Origin: Bacteroidaceae bacterium
GTDB lineage: Bacteria > Bacteroidota > Bacteroidia > Bacteroidales > Bacteroidaceae
Direction: 5' to 3'
Length of the DNA: 55,468 nt
Assembly (NCBI GenBank): GCA_045578665.1
Contig: JAZNKR010000181.1
Location: 1-55,468 of the forward strand
In this document: positions 1 through 31,253 of the stretch, piece after piece
Layout: every line of letters starts with the position of its first letter
How positions within the stretch are numbered: position 1 is the first letter of the stretch
Translations under genes and position numbers: made by a program
Notes under the pieces: model-generated
Database searches by the model: none
Seen by the model: only the letters and a program-made list of their open reading frames with translations
What the model was told of the DNA's origin: nothing

Positions 1-36
1 ATACAAGCTTGCTTGATATGGCTGAGGTGCGAAGGA

Positions 37-114
37 GAAAAACTCTGTTAAATAAGCCGAAATGAACAGCGCAAATATAGAATTATTTTTCAATAAAATT
101 CAAACAGCTTCTTA
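37..114 (-). repeat. 78-nt repeat carrying a minus-strand promoter box; second copy at 30644-30721
   Basis: Near-identical to 30644-30721 (gaaaaactctgttaaataagc.gaaatgaacagcgcaaatatagaattatttt...cttctta). Contains CAAATATA at 72-79, which is TATATTTG on the minus strand. Confidence 0.7.
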
Positions 115-3793: not shown

Positions 3794-4253
3794 GCGAGTG
3801 CAACCTATATTCGCAACGTAGTTGCAAAGATAGTGCAAACGAGCGAGTAAAAAACTTGTTTTTATTCACAGCGAGTGCAGCCTATATTCGCAACGTAGTT
3901 GCAACTATTTTGCAAAGATAGTGCAAATCAATATGAAAACAATCAAATTTAACCTAAGATATTAAACACACAGACAAAAAACAGAACCAAAACAGCACAT
4001 TATATATTTAAATTGAGTTAAAACAATCTTTTTTTTTGTAATTTTACAACGCAATTGCATAATTAGAGGTAAATTCGCACAAATATAGAAACAAACGAGC
4101 GAGAAATATGAAGTTTACTTCGATATTTTTCACAGCGAGTGCAATGTATATTCGAGGTTATCTCAAATATAGAAACAAACGAGCGAGAAATATGAAGTTT
4201 ACTTCAATATTTTTCACAGCGAGTGCAGGAAACATTCGAGGTTTACCACAAAT
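3794..4253. repeat. Array of degenerate ~77-84-bp repeat units (about 5 units, interrupted by ~140 bp of unique AT-rich sequence)
   Basis: Units start at 3794, 3871, 4135 and 4219, with a partial unit at 4078-4134. The unit consensus is gcgagtgca..ctatattcg...caaa[g/t]ata..aaacgagcgag...ttttcaca. Units 4081-4164 and 4165-4248 are an almost exact 84-bp tandem pair. Confidence 0.8.
3825..3832 (-). promoter_or_regulatory. Candidate Bacteroidota -7 box (TATCTTTG) for serS
   Basis: CAAAGATA on the plus strand equals TAnnTTTG on the minus strand, about 100 nt upstream of the serS ATG. Confidence 0.45.
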
Positions 4254-5411
4254 ATGGCAACAAATTTACATAAAATCATAAACCACACTACAAAGTTGCT
4301 GTTGCTTGCAATATTGGTGATATTCGCAGCAACAACCGTAGAGGCGCAGACAGGCAAGCGTCCCTTCACCATTGTCATAGATGCCGGACACGGCGGCAAA
4401 GACCCCGGCGCACTCTCATCGAACAGGAAGCTGAAAGAGAAGAACATCAATCTCGATGTTGCCTTGTCGTTGGGCAAAATGATAAACGCTGCATACCCCG
4501 AAATAAAAATCGTATACACACGCAAAAGCGACAAATTCGTAACATTGGGCGACCGCGCACAGATAGCCAACAGAGCCAAAGCGGACCTTTTCATCTCCAT
4601 ACACACCAACGCCGCAAAATCGACCAGACTGAACGGCTGCGAGACATTTACCTTGGGCTCGGGCAGCAATGCCGAAGCAAAAAAGGCAGCCCAATACGAG
4701 AACAAGGTAATGGAATTGGAAGAGAACTACCGCGAGACCTATAAAAAGTTCAACTCTCTCTCCACCGAAGACTACATAGTGCTCGAAATGTTGCGCACAC
4801 ACGACATCGAAAAGAGCATCTATTGTGCCGATGCAATACAGAAAAACATGATCAGACGCAGCAAGCGCAACAATCTTGGAGTGAAAAATGCAGGCTTTTA
4901 TGTATTGCACCAGACCAACATGCCAAGCATACTCATAGAGTTGGGATTCATCAGCAACCCGGGAGACATGAAATACCTGAGTTCATCAGCCGGCAAACAG
5001 GCACTTACCAAAGGCATATTCGACGGATTCTCGGCATATTACAAACAATACGGGCACTCCAGGAACTCGGCAAAAGCACCATCCGTGCCGGTAGCAGAGC
5101 CCGAGGTTGAAGAGGCAAGCACAGGGACAACGTCATCCACTTCTGCCCCTGTTTTCAAGATACAGATACTGACGTCGGACAAAGCACTGAAAGCAAAGGA
5201 CAAAAGGCTGAAAGGTGTAAAAGCCTCATACTATAAGGAGAACGGATTGTACAAATACACCTACGGCTCCACCACCGACTACAACGAGATTCTGAGACTG
5301 CACAAAAACATCAAGAGCAAGTTCAAGGAATCGTTCATAGTAGCATTCCGTGGCGACAAAAAGATAAGTACACGCACAGCAATAGACGAATATAAAAAGA
5401 AGAAAAAATAA
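4254..5411 (+). CDS. N-acetylmuramoyl-L-alanine amidase (Amidase_3) with a C-terminal SPOR-like domain
   Basis: Signal peptide, then the amidase core (IDAGHGGKDPGA; ISIHTNA; ILIELGFISN), a Ser/Thr-rich linker and a SPOR-like C-terminus (FKIQILTS...FIVAFRGDK). Confidence 0.85.
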   Translation: MATNLHKIINHTTKLLLLAILVIFAATTVEAQTGKRPFTIVIDAGHGGKDPGALSSNRKLKEKNINLDVALSLGKMINAAYPEIKIVYTRKSDKFVTLGDRAQIANRAKADLFISIHTNAAKSTRLNGCETFTLGSGSNAEAKKAAQYENKVMELEENYRETYKKFNSLSTEDYIVLEMLRTHDIEKSIYCADAIQKNMIRRSKRNNLGVKNAGFYVLHQTNMPSILIELGFISNPGDMKYLSSSAGKQALTKGIFDGFSAYYKQYGHSRNSAKAPSVPVAEPEVEEASTGTTSSTSAPVFKIQILTSDKALKAKDKRLKGVKASYYKENGLYKYTYGSTTDYNEILRLHKNIKSKFKESFIVAFRGDKKISTRTAIDEYKKKKK

Positions 5412-11960: not shown

Positions 11961-12098
11961 ATATTCCTCCTCTTGAAGAGGAGGTGGATTCAAAAATAAG
12001 TTTTTGAAGACGGAGGAGTTCAAAAAATGCAGTAATTTTTCGCGGTATTCGGGAACTCCCTCCCCCTACGGGGACTCCCTCTTCAAGAGGGAGAATAT
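11961..12098. mobile_element. 138-bp palindromic MITE/REP-like element with ~21-bp terminal inverted repeats
   Basis: Left end atattcctcctcttgaagagg, right end cctcttcaagagggagaatat. Internal hairpins are cctcctctt/aagaggagg and tcaaaaa-taag-tttttga, plus the arm ggaggagttc...gaactccctcc. Confidence 0.6.
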
Positions 12099-12839: not shown

Positions 12840-12961
12840 ATATTCCTCCTCTTAATAGAGAAGGTGGATTCAAAAACAAGTTTTTGAAGACGGAGGAGTT
12901 CTAAAGCATATTCATTGTTGCAGATGTTAGAACTCTCCTCCTACGAGGCTTCCTTAAATAT
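12840..12961. mobile_element. Second copy of the palindromic MITE/REP-like element (right arm degenerate)
   Basis: atattcctcctcttaatagagaaggtggattcaaaaacaagtttttgaagacggaggagttc...gaactctcctcc. Begins 6 nt after the ATPase stop codon. Confidence 0.55.
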
Positions 12962-17975: not shown

Positions 17976-18031
17976 TTATAGCTTTGCTGCTCCCTCTATT
18001 ATCTTCACAATAGTCATCATTGCCTTTCTTT
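17976..18031 (-). pseudogene. Relic duplicate of the pepT 3' end (last 16 codons plus stop)
   Basis: The minus strand reads [17 protein letters not shown]. This is identical in protein to the true pepT C-terminus at 19510-19562 but differs at ~7 synonymous or flanking nucleotides. Confidence 0.75.
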
Positions 18032-18076: not shown

Positions 18077-19231
18077 CTAAAGAAGTTTTTTCAGTTCTTC
18101 GACAGGAGGGAGCAATCTCTTCAAGCGTTCATCCATATCGGCTGTAGTCTTATATGTAGCCACACCCATAGGCTTGTCATAATCTTGAATTACGTATTCA
18201 ACAAATTTCTTATTAGCACTTTTGCAAAGGATAATACCTATTGAGGGATTCTCGTTAGGCTTTCGTACTTCATCATCGAGTATACGTAGGTATCCGGCCA
18301 GTTGACCCAAATATGAAGTCCTGAATGGACCGTCCTTTAACTCAACACATACAAGTGCAGCCAACTCTCTGTTGAAGAATAGCAAATCAGGAAACTCTTC
18401 TACACCGAATTTTTCCAAATGATATTGGTTGCCTACAAATGTGAAATCCTTGCCGAATGTCATAATAAACTCTTTTACATTCTGCACTATACGCTGTTCT
18501 ATCACGCGTTCGTTTCTGTCCTTATCACGAATGAAAAGTTCTTCGGTATTGATAAAATCAAGCAGATATTCATCCTTGAACATCGTGATGGCACGATACG
18601 CTTGCAATTGATCGGGAATTGTTTTCTTGAAATTATTTGGTAATTCTCCTTGATGACTATACAAATCATCATTTATAATCAGCTCCAAATCCTCAACCTT
18701 TGCTTTGGTGTCTGCCGCAAATTGAATATAAAATTTCCTTTGCTCGACATCCTTGACTTTGCTGATGATGGCATAATGGTGTGTGAAACCGATATTCATA
18801 AATGCGGCAATCGGGAAATTTGCATCTATCTTAAACTGTACAATTGGTAATTCGTTCGTTGGAACGAACGAATTACTATCAATATCTACAAATTCGTTCG
18901 TTGAAACGAACGAATTATCTGAAAGCATCTGCCACTCTTCGTAAAAAGTACGCATCTTTCGTAAACTTGCAGCAGAAAAGCCTCTTAATCCTGGTAATTC
19001 TTTGCGAAGTTGCTCGCTGACTGCTTCAATGAAGCCTTTACCCCAATTCTTATTTCGAGTATTCATTGAAACAAAGCGTCCAATTCCATAATAAAGTGCC
19101 AACTGCTCTTGGTTTATAGCAGCTAACGCACGCTGTTGACTATGCAGAATCGCACTCTTAATAGCCTGAACAGCATTGGTCAGTACCGCATGCTCTGTTG
19201 TGTTAACTATATCACTCATATTAATATTCAA
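18077..19231 (-). CDS. yhcG: DUF1016/YhcG-family PD-(D/E)xK nuclease-domain protein
   Basis: 384 aa. N-terminal helical DUF1016 region and a C-terminal nuclease-like core (PDLLFFNRELAALVCVELKDGPF). The gene is AT-rich relative to its neighbours. Confidence 0.75.
   Translation of the reverse strand: MNINMSDIVNTTEHAVLTNAVQAIKSAILHSQQRALAAINQEQLALYYGIGRFVSMNTRNKNWGKGFIEAVSEQLRKELPGLRGFSAASLRKMRTFYEEWQMLSDNSFVSTNEFVDIDSNSFVPTNELPIVQFKIDANFPIAAFMNIGFTHHYAIISKVKDVEQRKFYIQFAADTKAKVEDLELIINDDLYSHQGELPNNFKKTIPDQLQAYRAITMFKDEYLLDFINTEELFIRDKDRNERVIEQRIVQNVKEFIMTFGKDFTFVGNQYHLEKFGVEEFPDLLFFNRELAALVCVELKDGPFRTSYLGQLAGYLRILDDEVRKPNENPSIGIILCKSANKKFVEYVIQDYDKPMGVATYKTTADMDERLKRLLPPVEELKKLL
18849..18916. 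repeat. Two 26-nt perfect palindromes, 42 nt apart, inside the yhcG CDS
   Basis: aattcgttcgttGGaacgaacgaatt (18849-18874) and aattcgttcgttGAaacgaacgaatt (18891-18916). They encode the duplicated peptide NSFVSTNEF / NSFVPTNEL. Confidence 0.9.
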
Positions 19232-19509: not shown

Positions 19510-20748
19510 TTACAACTTTGCGGCTCCCTCAATAATCTTCACAATAGTCATCATAGCCTTCTCCATCACTTGGAGCGATACAAATTCGTAGCGGCTGTGG
19601 AAGTTGATTCCTCCTGCAAACATGTTGGGGCAGGGTAGTCCCATGAACGACAACTGCGCACCGTCGGTGCCGCCGCGTATGGGCTTGATCTGTGGTGTTA
19701 CTCCCGCCTCTTCCATAGCCTTGCGTGCAAGTTCTATGATGTGCATCATAGGCTCTACCTTTTCGCGCATGTTGGCATACTGGCGCTTCACTTCCACTGT
19801 TACAACACCTTCGCCATAGATGGCATTCATCTTGTCGGCAACCTCGTTCATGTAGGCAAGGCGCTTCTCGAATATCTGCTTGTCGTGGTCGCGTATGATG
19901 TACGACACTTCTGCCTGGTCGACACCGCCGTTGATGCTCATCAGGTGGTAGAATCCTTCGTAGCCCTCGGTCTGTTCGGGTGACTCTGCGGCGGGGATTG
20001 TCTCTACAATGGCTGTCGCCACACGCAGTGCGTTGAGCATCTTGCCCTTTGCATATCCGGGGTGTACGTTGCGTCCCTGTATGGTGAATAGAGCACTGCC
20101 GGCGTTGAAATTCTCAAATTCAAGCTCGCCCTCGGCTCCACCATCGACGGTGTATGCCCAATCGCATCCGAAGAGAGGTACGTTGAAGTTGTGTGCTCCG
20201 CGACCTATCTCCTCGTCGGGGTTGAAGGCAATTCTCACTTTGCCATGTTCAATTTCGGGGTGCGCCTGCAAATATGCCACAGCTGAAATAATTTCGGCAA
20301 TGCCGGCCTTGTCGTCGGCACCCAGCAGTGTGTGTCCGTCTGTTACTATAAGGTCCTGCCCCTTGTATGCAGCAACTTCGGGGAAATCCTTTACGGTGAG
20401 CACTATGCCATCCTTTTCGCACAGTGTGATGTCGCCGCCGTCGTATGAACTTACCACGCGGGGACTGACATCCTTACCACTCATGTCTGGGCTGGTGTCG
20501 AGGTGCGAGATGAATCCTATTACGGGTATCTCCTTGTCGCAGTTGGCGGGCAGTGTGGCGTAAAGGTAGCCCTTGTCGTCGAGGGTTATTTCGGTGAGCC
20601 CCATTGCGCTGAGCTCGCTCTCCAAGTAGCGGGCAAAAGTGAATTGTCCTTCGCTTGTGGGCACTGTGGTGTTGTCGTCTACAGACTCTGTGTCGAATGT
20701 TACATATTTGAGGAATCGCTGTAACATGCTGTTTGTAATCTCTTTCAT
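19510..20748 (-). CDS. pepT: Peptidase T (tripeptide aminopeptidase, M20B)
   Basis: 412 aa. Motifs [22 protein letters not shown] and [10 protein letters not shown]. Confidence 0.92.
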
Positions 20749-26434: not shown

Positions 26435-27913
26435 ATGGCAGAACTTAAAGATTTGACAAAGAGAAGTGAGAATTACTCACAATGGTATAACGAACTGGTA
26501 GTTAAAGCCGACCTCGCCGAGCAGTCGGCGGTGCGCGGTTGTATGGTCATCAAACCCTATGGCTATGCAATCTGGGAGAAGATGCAGCGTATCCTCGATG
26601 ATATGTTCAAGGCAACGGGGCACTCGAATGCATACTTCCCCTTGCTCATCCCCAAATCATATCTCAGCCGCGAGGCAGACCATGTGGAGGGATTTGCAAA
26701 GGAGTGCGCTGTGGTAACCCATTATCGTCTGAAAAACTCGACAGACGGCAAGGGTGTCGTTGTTGACCCTGCTGCGAAACTCGAGGAAGAGATGATTATC
26801 CGCCCCACATCGGAGACTATTATCTGGAGTACATACAAGAACTGGATACAGTCCTATCGCGACCTTCCCATCCTTTGCAACCAGTGGGCAAACGTGTTGC
26901 GCTGGGAGATGCGTACCCGCCTTTTCCTGCGTACCGCCGAATTCCTCTGGCAGGAGGGACACACCGCGCATGCCACACGCGAAGAGGCTGAGCAGGAGGC
27001 AAACACCATGCTCCACGTGTACAACGAATTTGCCAACAAACACATGGCTGTGCCTGTGGTGATGGGTGTAAAATCTGCCAACGAGCGTTTCGCAGGAGCT
27101 CTTGAGACCTACACAATCGAGGGATTGATGCAGGACGGCAAGGCTTTGCAGTGCGGAACATCGCACTTCCTCGGACAGAATTTCGCAAAGGCATTCGATG
27201 TTCAGTTCATAAACAAAGAGAACAAGCTCGAATATGTGTGGGCAACATCATGGGGCGTATCTACACGATTGATGGGAGCGCTCATCATGACACACTCCGA
27301 TGACAACGGTCTTGTACTTCCTCCCGCTCTTGCTCCCATTCAGGTGGTAATTGTTCCCATCTACAAGAATGCCGAGCAGCTTGCAGTTATAGACAGTAAG
27401 GTAAATGTACTTGTTGAGGAACTTAAGGCGTTGGGTATAAGTGTCAAGTATGACAATGCCGACAACCGTCGTCCCGGATTCAAGTTTGCCGATTACGAGC
27501 TCAAGGGTGTCCCCGTACGTCTTGTACTCGGTGCACGCGACATAGAGAACGGCACAATAGAGGTTATGCGTCGCGATACTCTCGAGAAGATTACACGCCC
27601 CATCGAAGGCATCACAGAATTTGTGAAGGCACTTCTCGACGAGATTCAGCTGAACATATATCACAAGGCTCTGAAGATGCGCGAAGAGAACACCCGTTCG
27701 GTAGACACATACGAGGAGTTCAAGGAGGAGATAGAGAAGGGTGGTTTCATCCTTGCCCATTGGGACGGTACTCCCGAGACTGAGGAGCTCATAAAGGCAG
27801 AGACAAAGGCTACTATACGTTGTATCCCCTTGTCGGGCGACAAGACCCCCGGTTTCTGCATGGTAACAGGCAAACCCTCTGCTCAGCGCGTACTCTTTGC
27901 AAGAGCATACTAA
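26435..27913 (+). CDS. proS: Prolyl-tRNA synthetase (archaeal/eukaryote-like type)
   Basis: 492 aa. Class II core, anticodon-binding domain and the C-terminal Zn-like extension ending ...FARAY. Confidence 0.95.
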
Positions 27914-28142: not shown

Positions 28143-29417
28143 ATGAACAAAGATGTATTTAAGACTTTAATAGTTGAAGGACAGGAAGAATTGCAAGAAG
28201 TGGAGTTATATCAGCGCCCCTTTGAGTTTGAAGAGGAAGGACGCTATGTATTGGTGGGTATCAGGCAAGCGGGAAAGTCTTATTTGCTATATCAACGCGC
28301 CAAACAATTGATGTTGCAGGGACATGGCGTGAAAGATATGATATACATCAACTTTGACGACGAACGCCTGCTGGGCATGACTGCCGATGACTTTGACCTT
28401 ATCTTGCAAGCCTATAATAGCATGTATCCGGGCAAGCCTATCTTGTTCTTCGACGAGATACAGAACATAAGCGGATGGGAGCACTTTGCCCGCCGATTGG
28501 CTAACCAGAAATATAGAGTGTACATCACAGGCAGCAATGCCAAGATGTTGAGCCGCGATATTGCCACCACCTTAGGGGCACGATACTTTGACGAGAAGAT
28601 ATTCCCCTATTCGTTCCGCGAATATATGGAGGCTCAAGGCGTATCACTCGGCAAGGAGTGGATGTATGGCAAGCAAAGGAATACCGTGCAGCAGATGATG
28701 AACACCTATTTCCGTTGGGGTGGATTCCCCGAACTGCTCATGTATCGCAATAAGCGACATTGGCTCAATGGCTTGTATGAGAAAATAATATTGGGCGATG
28801 TGATACAGCGCAATGGTATCAAGAACGAACAAGCGCTGCGACTTGCCGTCAAACGACTGGCTGAGAATGTGAAGCAACCTACAGCCTACAACCGTTTGGC
28901 CAATATGGTGAAGAGCACCGGTGTGTCTACCAATACTGCCTCCATCATAGACTATATCAGATTGACCAAAGAGGCCTGCCTTATATTCTCTATCGACAAC
29001 TATGCTTCTAAATTTGTTGAGAAAGAGACCGTAAAGAAGCATTATTTTACCGACAATGGGTTGCTGAGTATATTCTTGACGAATCAAGACACTTCTCTGT
29101 TGGAGAACCTTTGTGCGATAGCTTTATATAAGAAATATGCGAGTGATGATGAACCTCGCCTATATTATTATAACAAGAATGTAGAGGTTGATTTCTATAT
29201 ACCCGAAGAAGAAATGGCTATACAAGCTTCATATACTCTCTGCGATGAGGAAACCCGAAAGCGCGAGGTGGGAGCACTCGTGGCGTTGCATAAGTTGCAC
29301 CAGCTTAAAAAAGCAGTAATTGTTACTTATGACGAAGAGGATACTTTAGTTATAAATGGCTTGAATATCGAGGTGGTTCCTATATGGAAGTGGCTGCTTG
29401 CTTCCGAGATGCGGTAG
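28143..29417 (+). CDS. AAA-family ATPase (AAA_14 plus DUF4143-type architecture)
   Basis: 424 aa. Walker A GIRQAGKS, Walker B ILFFDEIQ. The C-terminal half resembles the DUF4143-type domain common in Bacteroidales ATP-binding proteins. Confidence 0.75.
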   Translation: MNKDVFKTLIVEGQEELQEVELYQRPFEFEEEGRYVLVGIRQAGKSYLLYQRAKQLMLQGHGVKDMIYINFDDERLLGMTADDFDLILQAYNSMYPGKPILFFDEIQNISGWEHFARRLANQKYRVYITGSNAKMLSRDIATTLGARYFDEKIFPYSFREYMEAQGVSLGKEWMYGKQRNTVQQMMNTYFRWGGFPELLMYRNKRHWLNGLYEKIILGDVIQRNGIKNEQALRLAVKRLAENVKQPTAYNRLANMVKSTGVSTNTASIIDYIRLTKEACLIFSIDNYASKFVEKETVKKHYFTDNGLLSIFLTNQDTSLLENLCAIALYKKYASDDEPRLYYYNKNVEVDFYIPEEEMAIQASYTLCDEETRKREVGALVALHKLHQLKKAVIVTYDEEDTLVINGLNIEVVPIWKWLLASEMR

Positions 29418-29618
29418 CTTAGAATTTCAGTTCTTCGCCCAAATTCTCCAAGCGCTCTATGGAAAATAGTCGAGTAAGTCTATTAATGGTATATGCAGAA
29501 ACCGGGAATTGCCGTACGTGTGGGGTGAAAGACGCTTGTTTAGGTGAAAAATGGCAAAGAGAAATAAACCACAAAGCCTGTCTATCCCTTGTGTGGTTAG
29601 GCAGGCTTCTGTGGCTTT

Positions 29619-29862
29619 CCTGTCCATCCGCATTTATAATGCGGATGGATTGAGTATTAGCATTTGCAATGCGCTTACATCTGATAATCCAATTGAACCT
29701 GCATAAACGGAAACAGATTCGTATATTATTGATAATTTCAGTTCCCACAATATTGTTATGGGTATAATCAATCTTTTACAGAAAGCCTATTGTGTAAATA
29801 TCTTCTCGTTTAAGCGCATCACAGATGCTTATACTCAATCCTTCGCGTTACAAACGCGAAGG
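29619..29862. repeat. Structured dispersed repeat, copy 1 (147-nt core 29619-29765, extension shared with copy 2, terminal hairpin)
   Basis: Starts cctgtCCATCCGCATttataATGCGGATGG (10-bp stem hairpin at 29624-29648). The core ends ...gttatgggtat. The extension runs to gatgcttatactc (29836), followed by hairpin ccttcgcgt-tacaa-acgcgaagg (29840-29862). Confidence 0.85.
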
Positions 29863-30019
29863 GGCGGAGAAAGCATTGTCTCCAATGCTTGTAATTCCTT
29901 AATATTATTTTGTAGTTTCGTTACATATTAGTAATTTTGTGCATATATAAATTTATACTTTACAATTGTGAAAAGCCACTTTGTAAATCAAGAATAAGAT
30001 TAACCTATTTTTTTGTATT

Positions 30020-30403
30020 ATGTGGTTAGCCTTTGCACAAAGAAACAGTTGCCATCACAGGGAAGCTCTGATGGAACTTGGTTATATAAATTGGACAATG
30101 CACCGAACCAATTTTGAAGTTGGTGATATTGTATTCCTTTTTATGTCTGATGAAAGAAAAGTTGCTTTCAAAACAAAAGTAGTTGCCAAAGATTGTGATA
30201 GAACAGATATTGCTTATTGGCAAGTTAAGCCCAATATGCACTTTACTTACAAGTTGGAATTGGTCAAGGAATACACAGGAAACAAGTTGGATGAAGATGA
30301 TCTAATCCAGCACGGTTTCAAGGGTGGTAGAAGCATACAACATCCTTTGAAGAACAATATTGAATTGCTAAGTTACATTGATTCAGTTTTTGATGAAGAT
30401 TAA
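30020..30403 (+). CDS. Hypothetical small protein (possibly a PUA/EVE/ASCH-like fold; unverified)
   Basis: 127-aa AT-rich ORF (possibly starting at the internal MELGYINW). The stop codon TAA at 30401-30403 is followed after 1 nt by repeat copy 2. Confidence 0.4.
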   Translation: MWLAFAQRNSCHHREALMELGYINWTMHRTNFEVGDIVFLFMSDERKVAFKTKVVAKDCDRTDIAYWQVKPNMHFTYKLELVKEYTGNKLDEDDLIQHGFKGGRSIQHPLKNNIELLSYIDSVFDED

Positions 30404-30404
30404 G

Positions 30405-30640
30405 CCTGTCCATCCGCATTTATAATGCGGATGTATTGAGTATTATCATTTGCAATGCGCTTACATCTGATAATCCAATTGAACCAGTATAAGCGGAGAC
30501 AGATCCGTTTATTAGGGATAATTTCAGTTCCTGCAATATTGTTGTGGGTATAATCAATCTTTTTACAGAATTCCTATTGTATAAATATCTTTGTGTTTAA
30601 TCGCATCGCAGATGCTTATACTCGTCCCTTTGGAAGGGAC
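30405..30640. repeat. Structured dispersed repeat, copy 2 (core 30405-30551, extension, terminal hairpin)
   Basis: Same 5' hairpin and core as copy 1. The extension runs to 30623, followed by hairpin gtccctt-tgg-aagggac (30624-30640). Confidence 0.85.
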
Positions 30641-30643
30641 GGG

Positions 30644-30721
30644 GAAAAACTCTGTTAAATAAGCAGAAATGAACAGCGCAAATATAGAATTATTTTCTAA
30701 TAAAATTCAAATAGCTTCTTA
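30644..30721 (-). repeat. 78-nt promoter-bearing repeat (second copy of 37-114)
   Basis: Contains CAAATATA at 30679-30686, which is TATATTTG on the minus strand and points into repeat copy 2. Confidence 0.7.
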
Positions 30722-30945
30722 ATACTGTTCTGTTATTATCTCATTTCTTGTTATTTCCTTGTTGTTTTTCTTATATTGCTGATTATTAAATATATAAAAC
30801 TTTAAAGGAATAAAAGAATGAAGATTTTCGACCACTCAGGGTGCATTATGTGGGTTAAAAAGTGAGATAATGCACGATTTGTGGTCAAAAACTTTGGTTT
30901 TGGAAAGAAAAGAAGTTACATTTTCGATAGAAAAACAGCAGTGAT

Positions 30946-30990
30946 ATGAATGAATTGATTGGAAGAAACAGGGAGTGTGCAGAACTTGCC
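30946..30990 (+). pseudogene. 15-codon N-terminal stub of an ATPase-like gene, truncated at the repeat boundary
   Basis: ATG AAT GAA TTG ATT GGA AGA AAC AGG GAG TGT GCA GAA CTT GCC encodes MNELIGRNRECAELA, an IGRxxExxxL-type N-terminus of Bacteroidales ATP-binding proteins. It runs directly into cctgtccatccg of copy 3. Confidence 0.45.
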
Positions 30991-31135
30991 TGTCCATCCG
31001 CATTTATAATGCGGATGTATTGAGTATTAGCATTTGCAATGCGTTTGCATCTGATAATCCAATTGAACCAGCATAAGCGGAGACTGATTCGTTTATTAGG
31101 GATGATTTCAGTTCCCACAATGTTGTTATGGGTAT
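30989..31135. repeat. Structured dispersed repeat, copy 3 (core only)
   Basis: The 147-nt core is collinear with copies 1 and 2. It diverges after ...gttatgggtat. Confidence 0.85.
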
Positions 31136-31245
31136 CCTCAATTTTTTGGCGTATAGCTCATTTTCAACCATCGATTTGTACTCTGAAACATTTGAACCTC
31201 TCAATACACCTGTAGGAATGCATGTTTGAGAGGGGTCGCACCCTG

Positions 31246-31253
31246 CAAAGTTA
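31246..31253 (-). promoter_or_regulatory. Candidate minus-strand -7 box (TAACTTTG) pointing into repeat copy 3
   Basis: CAAAGTTA on the plus strand. On the minus strand it is followed by hairpin cctctcaa...ttgagagg (31197-31233) and then the repeat core. Confidence 0.4.

Follow-up and report, generated by a model that had tools for sequence, protein, structure and literature searches.

A 250-nucleotide palindromic repeat at the borders of variable gene modules in uncultured Bacteroidales: a possible non-autonomous transposon-like element

What kind of sequence is repeated three times, sharply bounded and in one orientation, within 1.5 kb of a Bacteroidaceae contig, and how were its borders made? 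The question is raised by contig JAZNKR010000181.1 (assembly GCA_045578665.1), whose whole analysed stretch of 55,468 nucleotides (nt) is called the window below; the repeat itself is called R. An initial annotation of this DNA had described a cassette-like array, and proposed either a novel non-coding RNA or a recombination element. The latter pointed in the right direction, as R lies at the borders of modules that differ between related genomes. On the evidence of its junctions, we estimate the chances to be roughly even that R is a non-autonomous transposon-like DNA element, the ends of which make adjacent deletions, and the copies of which recombine with one another and thereby shuffle modules.

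Anatomy and distribution of R

The three copies start at 29619, 30405 and 30989, all co-oriented and with the same left edge, CCTGTCCATCCGCATTTATAATGCGGATG; no others are present in the 55 kb. Copies 2 and 3 are 90% identical to copy 1 (across 163 nt). As first reported, copies 1 and 2 stay alignable for about 70 nt further; identity there is 84%. Core probes of 22 and 24 nt gave exactly three matches each in the window, where none was expected. The full extent of R was read from related loci, fetched for comparison and given L numbers (L001 and so on). These contigs are from short-read metagenome assemblies, and about 20 of them were collected using two window proteins as handles: an AAA_14/DUF4143 ATPase, and ORF127, encoded by an open reading frame (ORF) between the first two copies. 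Copy 1 proved to be a complete unit, which the initial annotation had missed. The copies in the window are as follows.

R1, 29619..29868, plus strand: complete 250-nt unit, CCTGTCC...GGGGCGG; covariance-model match of 298 bits over the full model
R1, parts: left terminus CCTGT; left hairpin 29624-29648; stem arms 29644-29677 and 29811-29844; central hairpin about 29744-29762; right hairpin 29840-29863; right terminus GGCGG
R2, 30405..30644, plus strand: matches R1 up to ATACTC at 30623; 249.6 bits, model positions 1-251
R2, right end: remodelled hairpin GTCCCTT-TGG-AAGGGAC (30624-30640), then GGGG
R3, 30989..31147, plus strand: left 159 nt of R; an ATPase_2-type gene is broken off at its left edge, with 14 codons remaining

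The two ends of R mirror each other, forming imperfect terminal inverted repeats of about 57 nt with one hairpin in each. At either end the order is the same: 4-5 terminal bases come first, next a hairpin of 9-10 perfectly paired bp around a 5-nt loop, then one arm of a long stem. In R1 this stem, of about 30 bp, is formed by 34-nt arms that are 85% complementary, and it closes a core of about 130 nt, inside which lies the small central hairpin predicted by the initial annotation. The terminal hairpins differ in sequence, both being perfectly paired (ATCCGCAT/ATGCGGAT on the left, CTTCGCGT/ACGCGAAG on the right). Compared with shuffled sequence, R folds with z = -7.6 and -7.8 as RNA of the two strands, and -8.3 as single-stranded DNA; its description as sharply bounded and structured stands.

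Each copy had also been credited with a distal hairpin of unrelated sequence at an equivalent position. The hairpins exist (29840-29863, 30624-30640 and 31198-31233), and it is the word unrelated that has to be dropped: the one in R1 is the mirror image of the R1 left hairpin, and the one in R2 is the terminal hairpin, rebuilt as GTCCCTT/AAGGGAC with a new stem that pairs with R's own terminal bases. This variant, called c2-type after copy 2, is also found at L003:3442 and L013:3813. For copy 3, homology of the hairpin cannot be demonstrated, as its similarity to R ends after 31147 and shuffled sequence scores as well as its right half. The same result led us to reject the idea that copy 3 is a full-length, divergent copy with a compensated hairpin.

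A 22-mer of the core was found in 2 of 185,579 species-representative genomes, both of uncultured Bacteroidales. These two GTDB species are SIG131 and a Bacteroidaceae metagenome-assembled genome (MAG) from buffalo cecum, with hits on a single contig in each. The protein handles added about 20 R-bearing contigs from independent assemblies. Altogether this gave 14 distinct full-length copies, 90-96% identical, and 3 truncated ones. The termini are the most conserved part of the full copies, and polymorphisms are arranged as mosaics, as expected of exchange between copies. Each contig holds 2-4 copies spaced by 0.3-3 kb, at the same variable locus every time and in one orientation throughout. 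Where it is visible, the left border of this locus is formed by proS and the ATPase gene, with the locus downstream of both; on the right, in several genomes, it is bordered by a Schlafen-like ATPase gene, a helix-turn-helix (HTH) gene and a rhamnosidase gene. A duplication confined to the window, named in the initial annotation as a refuting outcome, is excluded by its presence in other genomes with different flanks.

Two further variant termini were noted. At L016 3932-3960 a shift of register has turned the left hairpin into a perfect palindrome extending as far as the terminus (CCTGTCCATCCGCATTGCGGATGGACAGG), and at L018 1740-1761 the terminal 11 nt, CCTGTCCATCC, are duplicated in tandem. 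Together with the copy-2 type of end (30624-30644), they look like template-switch events at the ends of R.

Searches for R in other collections were negative. An Rfam scan of the whole window gave 0 matches at gathering score and nothing real at permissive thresholds, in agreement with the initial view that no known RNA family is involved; the best sub-threshold score, 37 bits against a 211-bit threshold for a plant microRNA model, reflects only the long hairpin of R. No match to R was obtained by plasmid BLAST, phage BLAST or a scan of viral contigs, nor by scans of JGI metagenomes with different conserved cores, in a collection evidently devoid of the JGI contigs known to carry R. A covariance model built from the 14 copies detected no relatives of R around more distant ORF127 homologues. 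We conclude that R is a previously undescribed family, restricted to a lineage of a few uncultured ruminant-gut Bacteroidales, and that its behaviour is unusual for a small palindromic element.

Junctions at the ends of R and their possible origin

Counting by eye across the approximately 20 contigs, we distinguished 14 left and 12 right junctions of R with flanking DNA. Nine could be compared with repeat-free references, and in all nine, identity with the flank was lost at the canonical end, give or take a small offset of -2 to +1 nt. Several junctions are moreover nested, one flank being joined to R at several points:

R left edge and the DNA flanking the ATPase gene on its 3' side: 29436, 29446-29449, 29455, about 29606, and 29618 (window positions)
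R right edge and an LRR_5 fragment: 30, 66 and 211 nt from the fixed far border of the fragment
R right edge and a 345-amino-acid (aa) module: two points, 134 nt apart
R right edge and another module: two points, about 348 nt apart
R right edge and the Schlafen (SLFN) side: L001 1238 or 1678

Several genes are cut in this way. In L003 a full copy cuts proS at 27869, in L018 a partial copy does so at 27736, and an IS4/5-type transposase gene, an ATPase_2-type gene and the Schlafen-like (SLFN) gene are also cut at R ends; a DUF4838 gene is abutted by R as well. The modules are therefore chunks of chromosome with truncated genes, the same gene being joined to R at several positions, and not the units of one ORF plus one element proposed at first. 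Pairing of the flanks is shuffled, one left flank being found with various right flanks and vice versa, and at least three of the shuffled architectures recur in independent assemblies. A catalogue of left flanks, suggested earlier as a way to find a target-site preference at the CCTGTCC edge, yielded ends as varied as ..CTTT, ..TAAG, ..CTTG, ..CTTC and ..GCGC, among others, with no conserved tetra- or pentanucleotide. Microhomology was rejected as an explanation for the junctions, since identity with the flank runs out 0-2 nt from the ends and any overlap is inconsistent.

Flush, repeated and two-sided junctions suggest that the ends of R are cleaved and joined by an enzyme, that is, that R behaves like a transposon. 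Under this hypothesis, an enzyme encoded elsewhere would recognise both ends and connect them flush with DNA close by in the same molecule, or with a sister molecule. New copies would arise close by, with loss of the DNA adjoining either end, and copies would end up co-oriented within a few kilobases. Homologous recombination between copies, or a conservative reaction of the same enzyme, could then excise, swap or re-insert units of one repeat and one module. The outcome would be a hypervariable locus downstream of proS, with co-oriented repeats set between defence-type genes and fragments of genes. What the data show is the anatomy of R, its flush and nested junctions, its shuffled flanks, its single locus and its lack of coding capacity; a transposase-like enzyme acting in trans as the maker of the junctions, and homologous recombination as the cause of the shuffling, are inferred. 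The nested series fit adjacent deletions, and they fit equally well local insertions followed by recombination between co-oriented copies.

A gene for such an enzyme was sought close to R. No recombinase gene was found in the 26 of 35 large window ORFs that were scanned (all but four of those without a homologue already annotated in related loci), nor among the genes called in the fetched flanks; the enzyme, if any, would be encoded elsewhere. Genes for TnpB, IscB or a reverse transcriptase (RT) were likewise not called in the scanned ORFs or the fetched loci, nor was a Y1/HUH transposase gene in the fetched DNA. To this extent, the initial statement that the window holds no transposase, integrase, TnpB, IscB or RT gene was confirmed.

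Several observations weigh against a transposon-like R. No target-site duplication was seen at the edges of the 11 full copies with both flanks readable, and in no case do the two flanks of a copy adjoin each other in a reference devoid of R, as simple insertion would give; every copy seen may therefore be rearranged. The only transposase gene near R is the truncated IS4/5-type gene (L003), with an upstream end unlike R, and no transposase with R-matching ends was found in the window or the fetched loci. Copies are few and at one locus per genome, when a typical MITE (miniature inverted-repeat transposable element) is dispersed, and their single orientation is not what random transposition gives. 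Finally, the pairing of left and right flanks across 250 nt of R could sometimes be an artefact of short-read assembly. Half-junctions, on which the nested series are based, cannot.

Could R instead be a site-specific recombination site of the integron kind? In that case a recombinase acting in trans on the folded or duplex 250-nt site would move circles of one module plus R, and build a cassette array. Co-oriented dyad repeats between modules recall the Vibrio cholerae repeats of chromosomal integrons. R copies are indeed co-oriented, about 90-96% identical and imperfectly dyadic, they separate mostly single-gene modules at one locus whose content differs between strains, and they fold strongly as single-stranded DNA (z = -8.3). 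However, no integrase or other recombinase was called in the scanned ORFs or the fetched flanks, R ends in CCTGTCC and GGGGCGG rather than RYYYAAC and GTTRRRY, and its 250 nt exceed the length of attC, about 57-141 nt. Crossover takes place at one point in attC, whereas R shows junction series at both ends, with the same gene joined at five positions and modules containing gene fragments, which argues that these are not discrete cassettes. An integron-like site is therefore improbable in our opinion. Equally improbable is a more novel proposal, in which R would serve in cis as the site of a system of Bacteroidales, so far unrecognised, for the shuffling of cassettes. An enzyme supplied in trans would act on a folded, four-way-junction form of the 250 nt, and defence-gene modules would thereby be taken up, lost or traded at a chromosomal locus dedicated to this. 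Were it true, the system would be a functional analogue of integrons or of IS26 arrays, built on a non-coding element.

There is also little to recommend a purely passive R, a local duplication spread only by homologous recombination, with junctions left by ordinary illegitimate deletions. Its low copy number, its restriction to a single locus, its mosaic polymorphisms and its template-switch-type hairpin variants would all agree with this, as would the failure to find a target duplication or a transposase. Yet random deletions would end inside or outside R, whereas in at least nine independently checked cases, and on both sides, the junction falls no more than 2 nt from the same two terminal bases. 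Truncated copies are the minority, 3 among about 20 distinct ones. Moreover, recombination between existing copies alone cannot bring R against sequences as unrelated as a transposase gene, proS, SLFN and the DUF4838 gene.

Less probable still is that R acts as a structured RNA, either a minus-strand small RNA transcribed from an adjoining promoter or a 3' untranslated element of plus-strand genes ending upstream. Both strands have a strong predicted fold (z = -7.6 and -7.8), and R2 begins 1 nt past the ORF127 stop codon. The minus-strand TAnnTTTG boxes first noted at 30679-30686 and 31246-31253 both exist, in a window where this motif is common (42 occurrences against 31 expected). A canonical Bacteroides-type promoter, TTTG-N21-TATATTTG, is aimed into c2-type copies in three genomes; the other R copies have no such promoter module. 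The guide-RNA arrangement once envisaged is poorly supported: a convincing promoter stands beside the c2-type copies only, and no TnpB, IscB or RT gene was called in the scanned ORFs or the fetched loci. In the central hairpin, CC[C/T][A/G]CAAT..GTT[A/G]TGGG, the plus-strand wobble changes described earlier are present: linked C>T and A>G changes keep plus-strand G.U pairs (30 cells against 2), a bias due essentially to a single linked CA>TG change. Against an RNA, none of the 83 predicted pairs shows a compensatory change among the 14 copies, and in the three main helices, namely the terminal hairpins and the long stem, the two strands have about equal shares of the G.T and A.C mismatches (20 against 27 cells). 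No terminator-like site was found in R, and on this ground its hairpins were rejected as intrinsic terminators. No Rfam family matches, the family is confined to a narrow clade and absent from the contexts of ORF127 homologues, and flush junctions with truncated genes would be left unexplained.

A protein-coding origin can be dismissed, since R has no conserved ORF, its translations in both strands match no Pfam family, neither 1.84 billion representative proteins nor 5.8 billion sequences searched contained a real homologue, and its open frames are a consequence of the palindrome. A six-frame peptide query, aimed at R copies hidden in miscalled ORFs, was also negative. The 66-aa minus-strand ORF of copy 3, taken as a candidate protein, gave only a spurious tandem-repeat protein in an exhaustive HMMER search.

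Surroundings of the copies in the window

The DNA around R1, R2 and R3 consists of the following features, which include the small ORF and the gene stub already noticed between copies.

28143..29417, plus strand: AAA_14/DUF4143 ATPase gene
29456..29618, plus strand: segment B, which natively flanks the AAA_14/DUF4143 gene on its 3' side; it holds a terminator-like hairpin at about 29576-29609
29869..29898, minus strand: LRR_5 gene fragment (ITSIGDNAFS), abutting the R1 right edge
30020..30403, plus strand: ORF127, module gene between R1 and R2; its stop TAA (30401-30403) is followed by one base, then R2 at 30405
30645..30722, minus strand: promoter-bearing module abutting R2; TTTG (30711-30708), 21 nt, then TATATTTG (30686-30679), pointing into R2
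30947..30988, plus strand: ATPase_2/AAA-type stub of 14 codons, MNELIGRNRECAEL, cut by the R3 left edge

Several of these segments vary from genome to genome. Segment B is present between the AAA_14/DUF4143 gene and R in some genomes and absent in others, and the LRR_5 fragment measures 66 nt in L019 and 211 nt in L014, L016 and L022. The gene reduced to a stub at R3 is intact in L003 (3982-5409, 475 aa). The promoter module, taken as an 84-nt repeat (30638-30721), has a second copy at window 31-114 (93% identical), and further ones at L001 1241-1324 and 3670-3784 and at L003 3674-3757. Fragments of the 3' part of proS were found together with the AAA_14/DUF4143 ATPase gene, bracketed by R and away from the intact proS, at L003 1855-1900 (45 nt) and L018 1863-2040 (178 nt), which implies that this segment was duplicated or moved.

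ORF127 has no Pfam match. Its homologues (about 54% identical) are in every case followed, 3 nt downstream, by a GmrSD type IV restriction gene. The defence islands in which they lie (L030-L045) further contain an AAA_15+DUF4435 pair, Thoeris ThsB/SIR2 and RhuM. In the window, R2 begins at the place where GmrSD would start after ORF127. ORF127 may be an uncharacterised partner of GmrSD.

Three other repeats were recorded. A 51-nt direct repeat, 88% identical (17976-18026 and 19510-19560), brackets a YhcG/DUF1016 PDDEXK nuclease gene (18080-19219), and looks like the trace of an insertion that duplicated the 3' end of the adjacent M20 peptidase gene. At 4078-4264, directly upstream of an amidase gene starting at 4254, an 84-nt unit is repeated 2.2 times in tandem at 88% identity, with a minus-strand TATATTTG box per unit; a related sequence lies at L016 3759-3872. 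A 49-nt intergenic repeat, 94% identical (11977-12025 and 12857-12905), brackets an ABC ATPase gene. Its motif AGTTTTTGAAGACGGAGG is also the left flank of the R copy L014:738 (at L014 about 713-737), and it looks like a second small repeat family of these genomes.

Should an enzyme indeed process the ends of R, this locus would be a compact case of a non-coding repeat that organises a variable region rich in defence-type genes, namely those for the AAA_14/DUF4143 ATPase, the ATPase_2-type protein, the Schlafen-like ATPase, the LRR_5 proteins and the candidate GmrSD partner. On a practical side, R can fragment or mis-join short-read metagenome assemblies at this place, and calls for caution with MAGs of these organisms.

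Comparison with known systems

How does R compare with the repeats already described in bacteria? The omega RNAs of TnpB and IscB overlap or adjoin a TnpB or IscB gene, and no gene of this kind is present among the scanned window ORFs or the genes called in the fetched loci. REPIN/RAYT systems, and the PATEs derived from IS200/IS605, share with R subterminal hairpins near both ends, the lack of target duplication and a bias of strand or orientation. R differs from them by varying left-flank bases, long true inverted repeats, a low copy number and the absence of any Y1/HUH transposase gene called in the fetched DNA.

Integron attC sites, such as the V. cholerae repeats, are co-oriented imperfect palindromes between mostly single-gene modules at one chromosomal locus, with strong single-strand folding, all of which applies to R. 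Unlike them, R has no integrase, attI or Pc nearby and no RYYYAAC/GTTRRRY cores, its length is double theirs, its left and right ends are both recombinogenic, and its modules are gene fragments with variable borders.

MITEs of the Correia, ERIC and RUP types resemble R in being small (250 bp for R) and non-coding, with long terminal inverted repeats and a long-hairpin fold, in lying near and inside genes, and in having no transposase of their own. Measured against a published definition (PMC11602168), R is a non-coding sequence within 50-800 bp, with no transposase gene and with inverted repeats (about 57 nt) well over the 10-15 bp minimum; the 2-10-bp target-site duplication is missing (0 of 11 copies), and so is dispersal of the copies. 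In contrast to MITEs, R copies are few, clustered and in one orientation, and no parent insertion sequence (IS) with the same ends was found in the DNA around R. We describe R as working in the manner of a non-autonomous transposon, and do not class it as a MITE, because target duplication and dispersal are lacking and no parent IS is known.

The closest parallel to R, in our analysis, would be IS26. Arrays of IS26 consist of co-oriented copies without target duplication, with flush adjacent deletions and units made of one copy and one segment (PMC4196232). R likewise forms direct copies between unrelated segments, with no target duplication, with flush adjacent deletions, and with units found in differing contexts within one region. 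The two differ in their equipment: IS26 has 820 bp, its own DDE transposase and 14-bp inverted repeats, whereas R has 250 bp, no conserved ORF and unrelated ends. As R encodes nothing, any enzyme would have to act on it in trans. If its ends are indeed processed by such an enzyme, array building of the IS26 kind would be feasible for a 250-bp element without a transposase.

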